Source: Octopus vulgaris
Lineage: Eukaryota
Reading direction: 5' to 3'
DNA length: 64,000 bases
Assembly: GCA_951406725.2 (NCBI GenBank)
Contig: OX597821.1
Span: 9,982,001-10,046,000 of the forward strand
Shown here: positions 17,259 through 64,000 of the stretch, piece by piece
Position numbering within the stretch: position 1 is the stretch's first letter
Layout: each line of letters starts with the position of its first letter
Notes under the pieces: model-generated
Database searches by the model: none
What the model was told of the DNA's origin: nothing
What the model saw: only the letters and a program-made list of their open reading frames with translations
Position numbers and translations under genes: made by a program

Positions 17259-18863
17259 CAGTTGCGAGCAAAATGTTCAGAACGGCATTGTTTTCGCCAG
17301 AAAAGTAGGTATAAGTTTTTATCAAAACTTTAATTACACGATAATTACAATATTAATTATTATTGTCTGAGATTTTGGTGTAATTTGAGGGGATAATACA
17401 AAAGTTATGGATGATTTAGTGATCTTCTGCCAAACCCATGCCGGCCAAAATGATCAGAACGGTTGCTTTTACTCTGTGTTTTAGTATATTTAACTGGCGA
17501 TCTCTAATGTTTTGAATTTGTTTACGTGATGGTTCGTTTGCTAAGCATTAGTAAGAATATCTGCAGTGCACCTTGTTAATATAATGCCATTTACTCCGTT
17601 ACCAATTCGTCAGCAGATTATTAAGCTTCGAAAGAAAGATAATTTAAGTATTGGGTATATTGCAAAGATTGTTAACAAGTCAAAAAGTATTGTTCACGGT
17701 ATTCTTAAGGTCTTCGATGATTGTGGTTCATGTAAAGCAAGAAAATCTACAGATAGGCCAAGAAAAACGACCAAGAAAGAAGATCGTGCTATGGCAAAGT
17801 TGGTTAAAAAGGACAGATTTAAAACTGTTGCTGCTGCTGTTTCTCGGGAAATGAGCATTATACTGAAGAAAACGTTATCTCGAAAAACTGACTCTCATCG
17901 TTTAGTTGAACATAACCTACAAGCAAGATCACCTGCAGTGAAGCCACTGATCAGCTCCAAAAATAAAAAGTGTCGTCTTACCTTTGCAACCGAACATGTG
18001 TTGTGGTCTCAAGAAAGATGACAAACGGTGCATTTCAGTGATGAATCTAAGTTTATGTTATTTGGCTCAGATGGGAAAAGTAGGTGAAAAGTAAGTGAAA
18101 AATTGTCGCCTAAATGCCTTAAGACTAGTGTTAAATTCGGTGGAGGAAGTGTCATGGTTTGGGGAATGATATCTGGAGATGGTGGGGGCTCTTTGGTGCG
18201 ATTACATGGAAAGGTAAATGCAGGAGTTCATAAACAACTTGTAAAAGATCATGCCTTGCCTGTGCTGAGAAATTCAACTAAGCAACCACCCATATTCATG
18301 CAGGACAATGCCCCATGTCACAAGGCTAAGGTGGTCATGAACTTCCTCAAGGCTGAAAAGGTTATTGTTATGGATTGGCCTGCTCAAAGCCCAGATCTCA
18401 ATCATATTGAAATTGTGTGGAATATTCTAGAAGAACGTTTGAAAGCCAGAAATCCTAAAACAACCGAGCAATTATGGAATGCCCTTCAGGAAGAATGGAA
18501 TAAGATCACCTAGCAAGAAATTGAAAATTTAATTTCCTCATGCAGTCGAAGATGTCAAAGTGTGATTGAAGCTAAAGGGCTTCACACTAAATATTAAATA
18601 ATTCCAGTATTCTCCGTCATTTTTGATTATTTTATTTTTCAACAGTTCTGATCATTTTGGCCGCCATGGGTTTTGCAGTAAATCACTAAATCATCCATAA
18701 CTTTTGTATTATCCTCTCAAATTACACCAAAATCTCAGACAATAATAATTAATATCGTATTTATTGTCTGGGAAAGTTATTGAAAATAAAACAACTTTGA
18801 TAAAAAATTATATCTACTTTTCTGGCGAAAACAATGCCGTTCTGAACATTTTGGTCGCAACTG
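17259..18863 (+). mobile_element. full-length Tc1 (DD34E) transposon with long IR/DR-type inverted repeats
   Basis: TIRs 17259-17460 and 18645-18863 starting CAGTTGCG, TA flanks; each TIR carries two direct repeats CAAAATG(T/A)TCAGAAC. Confidence 0.95.
17584..18597 (+). pseudogene. Tc1 transposase pseudogene
   Basis: HTH region (IAKIVNKSKSIV..RPRKTT), FSDES, KFGGGSVMVWG, QDNAPCH..WPAQSPDLNHIE (34 residues between D and E); stops at 18019 and 18511 and a frameshift near 18080. Confidence 0.95.
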
Positions 18864-27114: not shown

Positions 27115-27781
27115 TTTTCCTCCTTTGTACGGCCACACCTTGAATACTGCTGCCCACTGTGGTCTCCTCACACAAGACAAAACATCTCCAGAATTGAGTC
27201 ACCCCAGAGGGCACTCACTAAACGAATTGAAGGCATGGCTGCTCTCGATTATTGGGATCGCCTTAAAGCCTTGAAACTTTACTCCCTCCAGCGTCGCCGT
27301 GAGCGGTACATCATTTGTACGATGTGGAAAATATACCGCCAACTTTGCCCAAACGACCTAAACATTAGCTTCAAGGTTCATCCAAGACTGGGACCACGGG
27401 CCATACGTCCCCTGCCCAATTCAAGATCACAACATACATGTACACTGCAACATAATTTCTTTTCCTCAACTGGCCCTGCCCTATTTAACATTGTCCCGAG
27501 GGAGATCAAAGAGGAAAAGGATCCCATCAACTTTAAACGGAGTCTGGATAGATTCCTTCAAAGAATACCAGATAAGCCACCCATAATTGGATACAACTCG
27601 CCCAACAAGAACTCACTACTTGAACAAAACTGGATACAACTCACCCAACAAGAACTCACTACTTGAACAAAACTTGACTTAAACAGGATTCGAATAACCC
27701 TATCAGGTGGTGCTATTAAGTTAGACATGGCCTGGACCAATCTTTGGTCGAAACATATCTAAGTTTATGTAAGTCTAAGTT
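27115..27781 (+). mobile_element. 3' end of CR1-like LINE (5'-truncated)
   Basis: VRPHLEYCCPLWSP..YWDRLKALKLYSLQRRRERY..GPALFN..FKRSLDRFL; short TCTAAG-repeat tail; family mate at 56270-56825. Confidence 0.9.
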
Positions 27782-45673: not shown

Positions 45674-45710
<37 letters not shown>

Positions 45711-45772
45711 TAAAAACGGCAAGATAACAAAAGAAAGAAAGAGACCTCAATATTATGTAAATAGAGGAAATT

Positions 45773-45973
45773 TATCTGTAAAATAATATGTGACAATTAT
45801 TCAAAAGCCAAGATAAAACTCTGAGTTTCGGATGCCGAGGTGGAAATCCACAACACCATCTCTTCGGTTATCAGGCCAGATAACCGAAGAGATGGTGTTG
45901 TGGATTTCCAGCTCGGCATCCGAAACTCAGAGTTATATCTTGACTATTGAATAATTGTCACATATTATTTTAC

Positions 45974-45978
<5 letters not shown>
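45773..45978. repeat. near-perfect hairpin (100-bp arms, 6-nt loop) built from two head-to-head hammerhead-like units
   Basis: 45773-45872 is reverse-complementary to 45879-45978; unit reads GATAA-CCGAAGA-GATG..CATCC-GAAACTCAGAGTT-TTATC. Confidence 0.85.
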
Positions 45979-46017
<39 letters not shown>

Positions 46018-46222
46018 TATTGAATTTCCAAATGTCTCAGAGAGACATAAGCAGTGGTGGGTTGATATAGTGGTTGTATACTGTCAACTCAACGTGACAG
46101 TCCCGTCAAGGGAATCACCTCACCGCTATTTAGCCCTAGGAAGCTTCGATACTTCCTGTCGGCTTTGATACATTTCCTGTGTCCTTATATTTGCAAAGGG
46201 GAGGCAAACACCCCCACCAGTT

Positions 46223-46290
46223 AGGACTAGCACTTGAAGACATGCATGTTTCTGAGTCTTGCTCGTCATCAGTCCAGGATAGGAAGTCCT
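46223..46290 (-). ncRNA. type I hammerhead ribozyme with intact catalytic core
   Basis: AGGACT-TCCTATCCTGGA-CTGATGA-CGAGCAAGACTCA-GAAA-CATGCATG-TC-TTCAAGTGCT-AGTCCT: bulged stem I, GAG/CTC stem II, palindromic ACATGCATGT stem III, GUC site at 46241-46239. Confidence 0.8.
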
Positions 46291-46472
46291 TTTCTCTTTA
46301 TTATAGGCACAATGGCCTGAATGCAGAGGGGACATAACAGTACAATATAGGACATGGGCACATATAAAAAAATACAGAAAGGATGATTTGAAATGAAGTA
46401 TTAACAATGAGTTAAATGAAATGGCTTACGAGTCCCCCAAAGCTCACAGTTTGTTTTACAATTACAGTTATA

Positions 46473-47855
46473 TTATTCGGGGTGTTCGTCAGTAATGTAA
46501 ACGAGTAATTCCTCCTGCTCTATAACGCAGGGCAAACTGTCATATCGAACGTAGTGCGCAATGCACACAACTGTATTTGGAAACAAATTAATTAATTTTT
46601 TTACCGTCTCATTATCTAATATTACTGCTTTTAGTTCGTTATCGTATATCCTCGGGTTCAATTTCACTCTCGTTAGACCTTTCATTATCGCTAATTTTTT
46701 CTCGATTTCTTTATCTTTTCGGTACAACATTACAGCTCGGAAATTTCTTCCTTTGGGTCTTCCTCCTTTCTTGCATTTTTTCAGATATTTTTCCACATTT
46801 GTTGACCATATTTCTATTTCCTCCAATCTTTGACCTTCACTCAATTTATTTGTTGTATTTTTCCTTTCGGGTGCTCGCTCCTGTGTCTCGTTGGCAGACT
46901 TCTTTTTTGTTTTTTTCTTTTTTTGGTCTTTGGGTGCTGATTCCACCCGTATTCGCTTTCTATCCTCTTTTTCTTCTGTTCTCTCCTTTTCTTTCTCCTT
47001 CTCTAGCTCGTCGCCACTTTCCATATTATCTGTTGTCATGATTGTTTTTCGCGCTTGTAGTTCTACATTCTCTCTTTCTAACTCCCCTGTCAAAGCTTTT
47101 ATTCCTTCCTCCAGGTTTATCATCTCCTCTTGTATTTCTCTTTGAGGACACACATCTTTCATGTGCCCTCTGCTCTTACATTTATAACACACTGGAGGTC
47201 TCCCTTCCACCACGACACTCAGTCGTTTCTCATCGGGGAACACCAACTCCTCCGGGATGTTGTACAAATCTGGCAGGGTTATGTGGATTAGGGCTTCCAC
47301 CGCATAACCCCACCAGTTTATTTCATTCGACTTTTCCATCTTCAGTATGTCCACGTCCTCCTTGCAGTTATAAATTATTGCAGCTGCTATTCTTTCGGTA
47401 TCAAGTTCCGGTGGAATTTTACTTATTCGCACCGTCACCGCTCGTCTACCACAGTAAGTAGGTAGTAATACCCACTTATCTGATCTCAACGCTGTCGTTG
47501 CATTCCTTTTTGCGTCATCTTCACTTTCGAAGCGAACGTCTACTGTTGCGTATTTTCTACCTCTATTGTAGGAGGTAGTTCTTTCTTTTATTTCTTGTAA
47601 ACACTTTCCAATTTCTTCCACTTCTGCCACTTCTATTCTTTTTGAGACCACACTCCATGTTCTGTATGTTATCGTTTTTTTCTCTGCTCTTTTCACTTCG
47701 TCTTCTGATGGTGTAATCCTCAGACAGTCTCCTTCCTTTTTGAAGCTGTCATAGTATTTCCCCAGATTTTTCTTCTCAATAATTACTTCTTTTAACTGTA
47801 ATGCGTCAGCAGACAGGCTTTTGCCTGCTGCTTTCGCATAAGTCCGGGCTTGCAT
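46473..47855 (-). CDS. intact Tx1/L1-type ORF1 protein (RRM-like region, CCHC zinc knuckle, K/E-rich tail), 460 aa from ATG
   Basis: Uninterrupted ORF; TYAKAA N-terminal motif, VTVRISKIPPEL, LSVVVEGRPPVCYKCKSRGHMKDVCP (C-x2-C-x4-H-x4-C); AATAAA at 46302-46297; no ORF2 follows. Confidence 0.85.
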   Translation of the reverse strand: MQARTYAKAAGKSLSADALQLKEVIIEKKNLGKYYDSFKKEGDCLRITPSEDEVKRAEKKTITYRTWSVVSKRIEVAEVEEIGKCLQEIKERTTSYNRGRKYATVDVRFESEDDAKRNATTALRSDKWVLLPTYCGRRAVTVRISKIPPELDTERIAAAIIYNCKEDVDILKMEKSNEINWWGYAVEALIHITLPDLYNIPEELVFPDEKRLSVVVEGRPPVCYKCKSRGHMKDVCPQREIQEEMINLEEGIKALTGELERENVELQARKTIMTTDNMESGDELEKEKEKERTEEKEDRKRIRVESAPKDQKKKKTKKKSANETQERAPERKNTTNKLSEGQRLEEIEIWSTNVEKYLKKCKKGGRPKGRNFRAVMLYRKDKEIEKKLAIMKGLTRVKLNPRIYDNELKAVILDNETVKKLINLFPNTVVCIAHYVRYDSLPCVIEQEELLVYITDEHPE

Positions 47856-48295
47856 ACCCAACAAAGAATTCAACAATTATAACGTTCAACACAAAGCAAC
47901 AGTTTTCAACAACAATATGCAACAACAAAATTCAACTCAAAACCGCTAATCCAAAAAACCGACCCAAACATTCCCGCGAGAGGTTACCATCTAAAGTAGC
48001 AAGTCGTGCTAGCTGAGATGGCTGCAACCGCTTTACAAATATAGGATATTTTCAGTGAAATGTATTCACTGATCACAAAAATTAGAAATATTGAATTTCT
48101 AAATGTTTCAGAGAGACATGAGCGGTGTTGGGGCGATATAACGACACAGAAAATGTGTCAAAGCCGACAGGAAGCGTCGATGCTTCCTAGGGCTAAATAG
48201 CGGTGGTGTGATTCCCGTTACAGGACTGTCACTTTGAGTTGACAGTATACAACCACTATATATATATATATACATAAATACGTACATATACACAC

Positions 48296-48358
<63 letters not shown>

Positions 48359-49505
48359 AACGTATATATATGTGCTTGCATGTATGTTAGCCTGAATGTA
48401 CATATGTTATGTATGTATGCATGTATGTATATCAGTACCAGTAGTGACGTCAAATAATTTCAACCGTACATTATTACGTCATTTTTCCAGAATCTATAAA
48501 GATGTTATCGTAAACATAATTTTGTCGATATATAATTCATTCTTGTATGCTTTGTCCAATTGAAATCTGGAAATTAAAAGAGAAAATGTCTAGAAATCGG
48601 GAGCGAATTTTTAGTGAAATTAGTCTCTAAACTTTTAACTGTCCAGCGGAAGAAATTGTTTGACATTGACCGATAGAAACATACCTATAATTTCTATAAA
48701 ATCTACATAGCAAAGGAGGTTATAGGTAATAATTGATTTTCCTGTCGTAATATCCGCGTCTAGATATTTTGCTTCTGACAATTTCTCACTGTAATTTAAC
48801 CCATCTTGCTTGGCGTGCACCTACTGTTACCCGAAATTAATTTTAGTTTTTGTGTGATTTGATGCATTAATTTATGTAATTTATATGAAGTTTACCCCCG
48901 TTTATATTCGCTAGATTAGCATTTCCCTTGAACTTTGTTTTTTACAGCTGCGATGTTATTGAATAAAGACCTGTTACAAAATGCTTATTTCTTTATTTTA
49001 AGTACACGCGTTCGCCTGATCAAAACTGTTCATTTCCATCAGCTTTACGGAGTGGGGTTCATATACCTAATTATTTCCTTTACAGCTGTTGTGGATTATC
49101 TTGATTGATGCTCACTTCCTTAAATAAAATTTGCAACACATTTCAAGAGATTAAATTATTAAATTTGAATTATTTTATGACATAAAAATGGTCGAAACGG
49201 ATAACGGTAATTACATAATGAGAAATTTGGCCCATTATATGCAGCGAGAATTTCATTATATTAAATGAGGGATGGATACTTCAGTAAACATTGCCTTTTG
49301 GTAAAACATGCAAAAATGTAAGAGAGGATTCATTGTCTAATATTTCATAGAATTTAACTGTTGCTTGATCACTTTTATATTTCAATTTTGTGCAACTGCT
49401 CATATCAAAACTTCCTGATACTGCTCTTTCGATTAGAGTATTTTTATATATGCTATGCAAAACAATGTACTTTCGGTCAGAAAGACTATTCAAATTCTAA
49501 ATAGG

Positions 49506-54677: not shown

Positions 54678-55600
54678 TTAGGCATTTAGATTTGTGGTAG
54701 GATTTGAATGTGTGAATAAACGGTGACTGTACGTGCTTAGTGCCGCATTATGTTTATTTATCAGTGTTGGAGAGTTGTGCTTTAATATTGTAAGCGCCCC
54801 CGTCAGGCAAAGCCCGCAGGTTGGGCGTTGACCTCGGTAGGGAAGTCCTGAGTCCAGTATGGACCACGTTAAATTATAGGGTATATTTTTATTTTTGAGA
54901 TGATGTATGTGGTTGGCAAGTGTTGCAGATTTACTATGTTTGTTGCATCTAAAAGAATGTAGGTGAGCGGCATATCGTTGCTTAAATTTTTTGGTTGATT
55001 CTATGTATATGGCTGGAGAGTTGTGTAATAGATTAAGAACATTGCATTTGTAAATTATATTATATATTCCGCAATGGGTTTGTAACAGGCAGATGATTCC
55101 AGGACGGTAATTACAATTAGGTGAATTTTGGGGATTGTGTGCAGAGATGGAGGAGGTAATATTGTCACAGGAAAGGTTAGAGAAGGGGGTAAAAAAATTT
55201 AGATTATTAGTATTGTTAACGTTATCATTACCATCATTGTTACTATTACTTATGTTGTTATTAATTGTACTATTTGTAAGTGTGGTAGAGATTGTGGTGG
55301 TGTTCCGGGCAGTGTCAGTAGCAGGCGTTTGGTTTTTGTTGTGGTCTAATTTAAATGTATCTATGCTGGAGCTGTGTGTATTTTGAGTGTTCGTATGGCT
55401 AGAGTTGTAATTATGTGAGTTTTCATAGCAAAGAGAAAGCTTTTGCTTATTAGAGGCTACTACAATAGATTCGAAATTGGGTGGGGTACAATAGGATAGT
55501 TTCAGGGTCGATCTATTAAAGATAGAATGATATTTATGTTGCCCATGGAAGTTAGAGTCTAGTAATTTAAAGAAGGATTTAGCTAAGTTCTTAACGTTAT
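54678..55600 (-). pseudogene. Penelope-like element 3' ORF fragment (RT thumb, linker, GIY-YIG endonuclease; Nematis-like)
   Basis: HKYHSIFNRSTLKLSYC (thumb), CNYRPGIICLLQTHC linker, IIYKC..IYIESTKKFKQRYAAHLHSF..LANHIHHLK..WSIL..CGLCLT..LINK; 5'-truncated at (TA)n. Confidence 0.85.
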
Positions 55601-55603
55601 GTA

Positions 55604-55654
<51 letters not shown>

Positions 55655-55676
55655 GTATGTATATGTATACGTATGA

Positions 55677-55707
<31 letters not shown>

Positions 55708-56269
55708 GGAAACATATGATTACTATTTTGGTGGGTTCGATTATGTATCGGGAAATATCGGGAACTTCTCATTTACATGAGAAGATATAGCTGTCATGGT
55801 GGAAATTGTAAATAAATTCTCCGCGAAGAGCTTTTAATTAAATCGAAGTGAGATAGTGAATTGTCTGGATATATTGTCTCAAAATATGTTGGAAGACCAT
55901 CAGGTCTGGCATGCCTACAAAATAGGTTTCCTCGATCTGGTTTGACGTGATTTTAACAATGAAGAAAATCAGCTTCTCATCACGGAAATAGATATTGATT
56001 TTCAGTCAATCGATATACACCAGTGAGATCATACTGCGTCATCATGTAATTAACAAAGCCAAAGACTAGCTATCATCTTCTCTGGGATAAAAATATTTAA
56101 ATCATAGCAGTTTTTAATTAGTATCCATGTTCAAGAGAATCATGATGTTTGATTTCATTAATAACGCGTGAAATAAAAGTATCGAAACAGCCGTTAGAAA
56201 TTGTTAAATTACAGAGCAAAAGAAAGAACTTCAAGAAGATGACGAGATATCAATAGATATACAGCTACA

Positions 56270-62049: not shown

Positions 62050-64000
62050 ATCACGTTGCACCTCCAAGGGCATCCATTCACGGTGATGCCCTCAATCTTA
62101 ATTATGTGTGTATAGCTCACATAATTCGTCTGTGGCAGACGAGATTGAGAATTTTTATGCAACCCTTCGTTCAACTATTGAGCAAGTACCTCTTCATAAT
62201 TTTCTAGTTATAGCTGGTGATCTGAATGCTAGACTAGGACCCGATGAGACCAAGTTTACTTTCAACTCTAAAACTAATCGGAACGGAGAAATGCTCAAAG
62301 ACTTGTGGGAGGAATTTAATCTCTACACTTCCAACAATTCTTATGAAACCAAAAGGTCAACTTTGGACATTTGAGTCCTCACTTGATGATAGGGCACAAA
62401 TTGACAACCTCATCTTTCGAAAGAAATGACGCAATAGTGTTAAAGACTCGAGATCCTACTCTTCCTTTAGTTCTGTCGGCTCTGACCACAGAATTGTATC
62501 AGCTACCGTTAAGCTTAGTCTTCGCTCATCCAAAAAAGCTAAGCTTCACCCGATGAAAATGATCCACTGGGAGGAAGTCTTATCTAACCCCGATTTGTCC
62601 AAACAATTTACTATCGAGGTCTATAACACATTTCAATCTCTGTCTACTTCTGAAATAGATGCTGAGAACATTGAAGGAGTATACATCAGCCTCATCAAAT
62701 CAACAGAGGAAGTTGCACTGGCTACTCTTCCCAAAAGGAAGAGTAGGGGCCAGAGCAAACCTTCTAATTCCCCAAATGTCATCGAAGCCAGAAACCATCT
62801 AAAGTCTATATCACTAGCTTACCACCTTTCTCCATCCCAGTCACTGAAGATCCAACTCATAGCTGCCAAGAAGAATCTTGATGAGGCTTACTTGAACGCC
62901 GAGGTCGACTTTATCAATGACAAAATTAGTAAACTATCCAAAGTACACATTAGTAAAAAACACCATCTCGCCTGGAAATCCATCAAAGACCTATCAGGCG
63001 AAAATTCTGGGTCATCAATTAGAATTAAAGGGGGATCAGCTAAGAAGCGTTTAGAAAATTGGTCAACCCATTTTAAAAACCTCCCTGGGAAGAATGCCAA
63101 AATCCCTGATAACCCCACTCTTCCAAGTGTGCCAATATCAGACACGCTGGACATCAACACCTCCCCTTTTACCATATTTGAACTAACAGCAGCCACCAAG
63201 CAACTAAAAGCCTCGAAAGCATTTGGTCCCGACAACATCCCAGCTATAATTTGGAAGGATGATAGATTTCACACACTTTTGCTCAACCTCTGCAACCACA
63301 CTTTCCATCTTTGTCGCTCCCAAGATTTGGCACCAATCTCAAATCATTCCAATACCAAAAAAAGGCCATTTATCCCTCGTCACCAACTACAGGGGTATAT
63401 CTCTAATGTCAATTGCTGCAAAACGGTACAACAAACTGATCCTAAATCGTCTTGTCCTTTTTGTTGAACCTTTGCTCCGAAAGAACCAAAATGGATTCAG
63501 ACATGGGCGCTCAACGCTGAGCCAGATACTATGCCTACGCAGACTTATTGAAGACACAAAAGCATTTAATCGCGATCTTGCAATGGTATTTGTAGACTTT
63601 TCTAAAGCGTTCGATTCTGTAGATAGGTACAAGATGTTTGAAATCCTTAAGCTCTATGGGATACCAGACAAAATCATTTCTGCCATCAAGGTCCTCTACA
63701 CAGATACGTCTTCAACCATCTTAACCCCTGACGGAGAAACATCATCTTTCTCAATCAAAGCCGGAATACTGCAGGGAGACACACTCGCCCCATTTCTTTT
63801 CATCATTGTTGTTGATTATGTGCTACGTATGTCAGTTGATACCAACTCTGGCAAGGGTTTTGAAATAAAACCAAGAAGAAGTTCCAGACACCCAGCTGAG
63901 TACTTGACAGACACTGACTTTGCTGACGACATCGCTCTTATCAGTGATTCTCTCTCCAATGCCCAGTCTCTTTTACAATCTCTTGAACAAGCCTCAAATT
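62050..64000 (+). mobile_element. RTE-group LINE, APE-RT ORF with frameshifts; continues past the window end
   Basis: ENFYATL..IAGDLNARLG, QIDNL, SDHRIV (APE); KAFGPDNIP, NYRGISL, QNGFR, FVDFSKAFDSV, GILQGDTLAPFLF, FADD (RT). Confidence 0.93.

Follow-up and report, generated by a model that had tools for sequence, protein, structure and literature searches.

On the minus strand of the window (the whole stretch of Octopus vulgaris DNA analyzed here, 64,000 nucleotides from a host genome of 2.8 Gb), two mobile elements lie one inside the other: an ORF1-only LINE derivative sits within a hammerhead retrozyme that has a Penelope-type structure and is placed in (AT)n. The account that we favor, and hold to be probable, is that a half-LINE flanked by a target-site duplication (TSD) occupies a ~350-nt retrozyme, where it was likely inserted by a LINE reverse transcriptase (RT) at a TATA-defined start, and that the filled unit was likely copied by Penelope-type machinery. 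An earlier note on this DNA had offered, as one reading, a Tx1-derived insertion nested in a repeat of the Penelope-like element (PLE) type, and this is borne out by empty monomers, TSDs, and copies in other targets. Its other reading, a ribozyme-bearing unit borrowing a PLE RT, is supported for the filled retrozyme, but not as one element bounded by inverted terminal repeats of its own.

The natural empty monomer L058 spans the insertion point, and its alignment covers both halves of the locus. Because this monomer aligns on both sides and a duplication is present, the cassette is an insertion and the "inverted repeats" are the Penelope-type arrangement of the retrozyme. Read along the minus strand, the locus starts at an (AT)n-rich microsatellite (5' flank, 48257 to 48371; repeat scan), followed by an inverted 5'-truncated retrozyme piece (48136 to 48261, plus strand), which was recognized by comparison of the arms and corresponds to the inverted copy of the PLE arrangement as described in PMC8557442. 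The upstream part of the retrozyme (48008 to 48140), which aligns to L058, comprises the end of the preceding monomer (direct repeat, 48140 to 48081), a hairpin, a TATA-like box (48045 to 48036, with two changes relative to L058), and an Inr-like site (48020 to 48012), and may serve as a promoter. Next are the 5' copy of the TSD (47996 to 48007), which is degenerate and was placed by the L058 alignment, and the 5' leader of the ORF1-only element (47856 to 47995), delimited by the junction table, although the L058 alignment continues with mismatches to 47983; the first ~15 nt of this leader are target-like and may be a remnant of a target carried along. ORF1 (460 aa, 46473 to 47855) precedes a 3' untranslated region (46291 to 46472) identified by its tail matches, with a LINE-type tail stem-loop (46317 to 46306) and AATAAA (46302 to 46297). 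The 3' copy of the TSD (46279 to 46290; junction table and L058 alignment) falls within the extended stem I region of the predicted type I hammerhead (46231 to 46280). The downstream part of the retrozyme (46011 to 46290), aligning to L058 from 46290 on, contains the hammerhead and the remainder of the ~350-nt monomer and runs to the (AT)n microsatellite at its 3' flank (45976 to 46011; repeat scan).

The inverted arms (46065 to 46190 and 48136 to 48261) differ at 12 of 126 positions and are thus ~10% apart, in agreement with the dozen or so differences in ~125 counted in the earlier note, and a 60-nt direct repeat (46010 to 46069 and 48081 to 48140, seven differences) links both ends. The note had also correctly recognized the intact minus-strand frame with its CCHC knuckle, the AATAAA, the hammerhead, and the lack of an RT, an endonuclease, or poly(A) in the element. 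It was mistaken in reporting no TSD, as the degenerate duplication is bridged by the empty monomer, and in treating the repeats as the terminal repeats of the cassette, as these are the 5' half of the retrozyme, the inverted piece, and the 3' half. A leader is present as it stated, but the first ~40 nt of the ~175 nt assigned to it are retrozyme and TSD, leaving a leader of ~140 nt that is the element's own.

ORF1 is predicted to encode two RRM-like domains (approximately aa 50 to 135 and 136 to 220), a CCHC knuckle (aa 222 to 238), a charged helical middle, and a C-terminal domain. An AlphaFold2 model of aa 1 to 250 built from 66 sequences reached a pLDDT of 90.6, compared with 38.8 for a single-sequence model of ORF1, and the model of aa 251 to 460 was poor and gave no fold assignment. 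With the ORF1 model as the query, Foldseek returned tandem RRM proteins (E 2.6e-5) and VIA-align gave a Z of about 8 per domain, which is a middling score. ZCCHC3-type RBD clusters are listed in the Atlas with a score of 0.91. The Pfam zf-CCHC match scored 18.2 bits, below the 20.8 cut-off. According to these models, the protein is a LINE ORF1 of RRM-RRM-CCHC composition. Named homologues of the ORF were found in Octopus species (O. bimaculoides and O. sinensis) and Argonauta.

The ORF1-only family is old and multi-copy. Many near full-length copies were present among the 40 scored of 3,231 candidates in a DNA search, the best being 88 to 90% identical, and the 150 scored of 13,569 candidates in a protein search were all strong matches, including many open frames of 440 to 480 codons. 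The exact 21-nt tail had 79 matches genome-wide and none in the control, and units of ~1.8 kb that lack an ORF2 were seen to follow one another in head-to-tail arrays. A truncated ORF2 at one locus led to full LINEs, which form three families with homologous ORF1s and carry an ORF2 of 1,128 to 1,134 aa with an APE-RT-zinc finger arrangement (PF03372, PF00078, and PF13966 in the closest relatives). The tail stem-loop and AATAAA of the ORF1-only element are common to all three full LINE families and to a SINE, with base pairs swapped. Judged from domain content and target preference, the parent LINEs appear to be Tx1-type, and one distant match to them bears the name Transposon TX1 protein.

Among the matches listed, none of the ORF1s linked to an ORF2 exceeded 37% identity to the window protein, and no ORF2 was found behind an ORF1 of at least 40% identity, each such row being followed by a tail or left unassigned; none of 40 further loci contained an ORF2. 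A midpoint-rooted tree of 39 rows places the window protein in a clade of 11 rows (100/99), which contains a protein from O. bimaculoides and none of the ORF1s linked to an ORF2. The possibility raised in the earlier note, that the family always occurs with an ORF2 and never near a hammerhead, can be set aside because no ORF1 of at least 40% identity was seen with an ORF2 and hammerheads follow 23 of 30 sampled tails (counted by eye).

Mammalian HAL1 (half-L1) elements are described as non-autonomous, encoding ORF1p only, and having several origins (PMC5753468). The octopus element is likewise an ORF1-only LINE derivative that was amplified with TSDs, shows purifying selection in its source lineages, and has its 3' end in common with an autonomous LINE. 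HAL1 proper is of mammalian L1 origin and has a poly(A) tail, whereas the octopus element has octopus homologues and an RRM-RRM-CCHC ORF1, is apparently Tx1-type-derived, is site-specific, and lies in arrays and inside a ribozyme repeat; its tail in most copies ends a few bases past AATAAA, mostly without poly(A). Drosophila HeT-A is also a non-LTR element that encodes Gag/ORF1 only, forms head-to-tail arrays, and borrows its RT. The octopus element resembles it in the first two respects and likely in the third, and is unlike it in that HeT-A belongs to the Jockey clade, is telomeric, and has neither a TSD nor a ribozyme.

The hammerhead reads, on the minus strand, as the 5' strand of stem I (46280 to 46273), the core (46272 to 46266), stem II, GAAA (46252 to 46249), a palindromic stem III, a predicted cleavage site after 46239, and the 3' strand of stem I (46238 to 46231). 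The exact core pattern was matched 279 times genome-wide and not at all in the control. Across 68 related motifs, the stems stay paired while the pair types change (stem II, G-C in 48 and A-T in 18; stem I pair 4, T-A in 51 and C-G in 9). As the parser demanded three stem I pairs, only stem I pairs 4 and 5 and the pair types are informative, and this variation is supportive rather than a formal test. Since Rfam has no matching model (neither the locus nor an empty dimer gave a hammerhead match), the assignment as type I is based on the motif and the stem variation. The minimum-energy fold was not better than those of shuffled sequences (z −1.1), which is expected because the motif is small and stem III is palindromic.

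Most sampled hammerhead loci are empty and consist of a monomer of 349 to 355 nt in partial tandems and inverted pairs (with periods of 349 and 355 nt at L037 and L054), a length that falls in the range of 150 to 450 nt used to define non-LTR retrozymes. By motif and monomer criteria, the host repeat is a ~350-nt non-LTR retrozyme with a predicted type I hammerhead. Non-LTR retrozymes of mussels are characterized by a type I hammerhead, a length of 350 to 390 bp, partial tandems, and no coding capacity in the account given in PMC7229834, and non-LTR retrozymes have been proposed to be non-autonomous, non-coding derivatives of PLEs (bioRxiv 10.64898/2026.07.22.740005). The octopus host repeat resembles them in its monomer length, its type I hammerhead, and its partial tandems, but the filled form is ~2.1 kb and carries the 460-aa ORF, which is under selection, and so is not non-coding. 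Its partial tandem with an inverted 5'-truncated copy, its microsatellite targets, and its hammerhead are features of PLEs, from which it differs in that no PLE RT, with or without GIY-YIG, is present in the element. Assignment to DIRS or Ngaro was rejected, as there are no tyrosine recombinase/RT ORFs, truncation is variable, and TSDs are present.

A tail followed by a hammerhead was found in 82 rows, comprising 37 full-length copies (29 of which keep the upstream half of the retrozyme), 9 cut by the edge of the locus, and 36 truncated copies. Hand curation of the truncated rows removed those without a cassette, arrays, later insertions, and nested cases; 11 clearly 5'-truncated, hammerhead-ending copies then lacked the upstream half, and one (L103) kept it together with a TSD. 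Some of the missing upstream halves may be due to later deletions or to 3' transduction by a LINE RT. At eight hand-curated loci an inverted piece of the cassette lies at the 5' end, and in five of these the tail and hammerhead occur on both arms with 87 to 97% identity. To our knowledge, twin priming does not yield head-to-head pairs in which the tail and hammerhead are duplicated. Two end positions are common to 31 of the 36 filled copies and 17 of the 25 empty ones, often beside microsatellites. Because plain LINE insertion into an existing retrozyme must leave the upstream half in place, truncated copies without it are best explained by copying of a unit from the 3' end of the retrozyme, and the filled retrozyme was likely copied as a unit by Penelope-type machinery. 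Integration of PLEs is reported to yield partial tandems and inverted 5'-truncated copies in microsatellites, with a hammerhead in the repeat (PMC8557442).

It is improbable that LINE-type insertion was the only process, with the apparent composites arising by read-through 3' transduction or by later deletions and inversions and no PLE step involved. The 29 full-length copies that keep the upstream half would fit such a history, as would TSDs that match the local hammerhead subfamily, and no autonomous PLE with the same repeat was found within 1.5 kb on each side of 30 of the 279 hammerhead loci. However, the ends of the truncated copies, most of which lack the upstream half, coincide with the termini of the retrozyme itself and lie next to microsatellites, and the head-to-head pairs duplicate the tail and hammerhead in the way described for PLE integration (PMC8557442). 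At one of the 30 loci a PLE fragment lies nearby, bearing its own, different hammerhead. A Terminon-like unit, considered on account of a PLE RT upstream of array L066, was dropped because this RT belongs to an unrelated neighbor and most arrays have no hammerhead between their units.

Junctions were tabulated for 91 full-length units. TSDs of 15 to 21 bp begin a few bases after AATAAA and are present at most full-length copies, those at non-retrozyme sites included. The targets comprise at least six hammerhead subfamilies, target-spaced arrays, a Helitron-like repeat, a second unrelated repeat, and single sites. This range bears on a further explanation, in which a protein-coding retrozyme was born once as a single fixed, non-autonomous element of PLE type and the empty monomers are its deletion products. 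Cassette and hammerhead subfamilies do tend to go together, and variants recur across loci in some of the 5' TSD copies, but the same retrozyme was entered at two or more positions, the arrays are spaced by duplicated target, and other ORF1-only lineages occupy the same site. TSD-flanked copies in the Helitron-like repeat, in the second unrelated repeat, and at single sites, all outside retrozymes, already largely refute a single birth, which we consider very unlikely.

After 31 rows had been dropped from the junction table (14 weak, 15 array-internal, and 2 offset), 60 copies in 22 target clusters were left; 41 of these copies and 13 of the clusters have a TATA-like box 24 to 36 nt upstream, compared with 6.5% at random positions. 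Several clusters are related retrozymes, so that the independent count is lower than 13 of 22, and the automated table mis-anchors some sites (among them L003, L011, L069, L079, and two microsatellite rows), which were retained in these counts. By hand tally, 7 of 13 targets have the box (binomial p 6e-6), or 7 of 16 when weak new sites are included (p 3e-5), both motif and tally having been set post hoc. A fresh sample left 20 copies after filtering, of which 13 were box-positive, all in target families already known, and the box was present at none of six new sites, at least three of which were array-internal while the others were weak TSD calls. The window copy lies at a second site, which is 12 nt farther downstream than the main one, and its TATA-like box is mutated. 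These position statistics support the view that the ORF1-only element targets promoters behind a TATA-like box, and the spacing suggests that the insertion point would be the transcription start.

Two of the full LINE families also insert in other repeats. One inserts in the same Helitron-like repeat, 36 to 39 nt behind the same box at three of five outer junctions, and often lies in arrays together with ORF1-only units; because the target and box are shared and the arrays are mixed, this family probably donates the RT for that branch. In another, the site is set by sequence and lies in a SINE without a TATA box (6 of 6 copies), which counts against promoter targeting. At the retrozyme site only two LINE/SINE-type tails were seen, with no partner ORF2 shown upstream, as candidates for a donor to the retrozyme branch. 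TBP exons were located in the genome.

The insertion site may instead be set by sequence preference of the endonuclease or by annealing of a co-transcribed target, the link to TATA then reflecting survival of copies behind a promoter followed by hitchhiking; we give this somewhat less than an even chance. It accords with the sequence-specific targets of the full LINEs, with the target-like remnants carried by leaders, and with the distribution of box-positive copies, most of which belong to three multi-copy targets, to which the fresh sample added no new positive target. Against it, the target sequences share no obvious motif, and the hand tally placed a box at 26 to 33 nt in 4 of about 10 one-off sites and in all three multi-copy targets.

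Under the account favored here, the RNA of the ORF1-only element would be recognized by the 3' tail, with its stem-loop and AATAAA, that it has in common with the full LINEs, and a borrowed full-LINE endonuclease-RT would insert it by target-primed reverse transcription, giving duplications of 15 to 21 bp and head-to-tail arrays at one site. Landing in the sense orientation 12 to 45 nt upstream of the hammerhead core would keep the ribozyme whole and supply a promoter-poor element with a promoter. Read-through RNA ending in the retrozyme could then act as a substrate for a PLE RT, which would insert it into (AT)n and so produce 5'-truncated copies and partial copies in inverted orientation. 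ORF1 may owe its retention to a role in cis on the RNA that encodes it, as a chaperone and possibly in targeting. A bolder version, which we put forward tentatively and regard as doubtful, is that a LINE lineage without an RT kept ORF1 as a targeting module for the TATA-defined Pol II starts of mobile elements, resulting in a protein-coding retrozyme served by both Tx1 and Penelope RTs and possibly in a ribozyme-cut circular RNA of ~2 kb.

Members of the Tx1 clade (Tx1L in Tx1D, Tx1-Mar with SINEU, Keno, Kibi, and Koshi) are reported to insert in repeats, to form tandems, to have passengers mobilized in trans, and possibly to rely on flanking transcription (PMC4494074). The octopus element, like these passengers, sits in other repeats, but it is protein-coding, and its targets, a retrozyme and repeats unrelated to it, are entered at a fixed distance from a TATA-like box. 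For SINEU-3, the same source (PMC4494074) tested the idea that it hitchhikes on its target and rejected it, whereas the truncated octopus copies point to hitchhiking. A precedent for ORF1-linked promoter targeting is Dictyostelium TRE5-A, an L1-group element described as position-specific relative to a promoter, with an ORF1p that binds TBP, Brf1, and Bdp1 (PMC5911963). TRE5-A differs in being autonomous and in inserting upstream of Pol III genes in the opposite orientation, while the octopus target would be a TATA-type start entered in the sense orientation. If insertion does follow the TATA box, this would be the Pol II equivalent of the targeting seen in TRE5-A and would offer a starting point for programmable promoter-proximal integration.

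A repeat annotation of octopus gives L1-Tx1 and Penelope classes at a coarser level, with class totals in its supplement (PMC13282606). No ORF1-only element targeting retrozymes was described in the literature searched, Repbase and most subscription papers being outside the search, so that these families may already be catalogued. The locus joins three things described apart in that literature: LINE derivatives that encode only ORF1, Tx1 elements with specific targets, and animal retrozymes without coding capacity. Sequence-level evidence that retrozymes are moved by PLE-type machinery and can bear a coding cargo of 1.7 kb comes from the truncated and inverted composites. Because ORF1 is the sole gene kept and is under selection, the family is also a natural test of the role of a LINE ORF1 in cis when the RT comes in trans.

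Selection on ORF1 was assessed in 38 copies and the window copy by separating shared from private changes. For changes shared between copies, omega was 0.12 within the RRM-RRM-CCHC part and 0.25 over the full ORF, compared with 0.78 for private changes. These values indicate that ORF1 is under purifying selection in the source lineages and is required by the source elements. The earlier note had taken the intact frame of the window copy to be special; three of the 39 aligned copies are free of stops and frameshifts. In run X2 (62 million letters, kind unrecorded), contigs 98 to 100% identical over 46166 to 48165 were found, with a depth of about 500 and no indels in the ORF. In this run the repeat ends were covered at lower depth, contrary to run X5, as would fit a transcript, but the contigs show no level, strand, or ends. 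The contigs and an open frame in an old-looking locus, with its arms 10% apart and its nearest other copies at 88 to 91%, are what a domesticated ORF1 gene of the L1TD1 or ZCCHC3 kind might present. Domestication is nonetheless highly improbable, since the changes private to the window copy (4 synonymous and 14 nonsynonymous) give an omega of 0.88, like that of dead copies (Fisher p 1.0). The window copy looks neutral rather than domesticated, an ordinary, neutrally ageing member of the family whose frame is still open.

Several other ORF1-only lineages were found at loci elsewhere in the genome (L061, L073 to L076, L116 to L118, L123, and L136), sharing 30 to 45% identity with the 460-aa ORF1 of the window. 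Some of these lineages are located behind the same hammerhead site as the family in the window, and ORF2 may have been lost repeatedly, in more than one event, among ORF1-only lineages.

ORF1-only units also target an unclassified repeat with CCAAT-like and TATA-like boxes (L267 to L280; about 490 candidates). A nonautonomous Helitron-like repeat (L253 to L266, e.g., positions 1150 to 2250 of L255; about 280 candidates) is a landing site common to ORF1-only units and one full LINE carrying both ORFs, and mixed arrays of the two exceeding 20 kb have been built there. Inside this repeat, a TATA-like box is followed by part of a LINE ORF1 that the repeat has captured. In a tRNA-type SINE, one site serves for the insertions of a young family of Tx1-type LINEs (L131 to L133 and L144 to L146), with TSDs of 12 to 16 bp; the tail of this SINE is similar to that of the inserting LINE.

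Adjoining the nested element, within (AT)n, is a palindrome of a Penelope-like element (PLE)-type repeat other than its retrozyme (window positions 45708 to 45981; arms of 106 nt, 94%). Both arms carry a hammerhead-like motif whose core is altered at one conserved position. Other remnants in the window comprise a GIY-YIG region (54678 to 55772) and reverse transcriptase pieces (62553 to 63467 and 27235 to 27666), which, from their motifs, we take to be of PLE and LINE origin, respectively, and a Tc1/mariner transposase (17584 to 18513) matching Pfam HTH_Tnp_Tc3_2.
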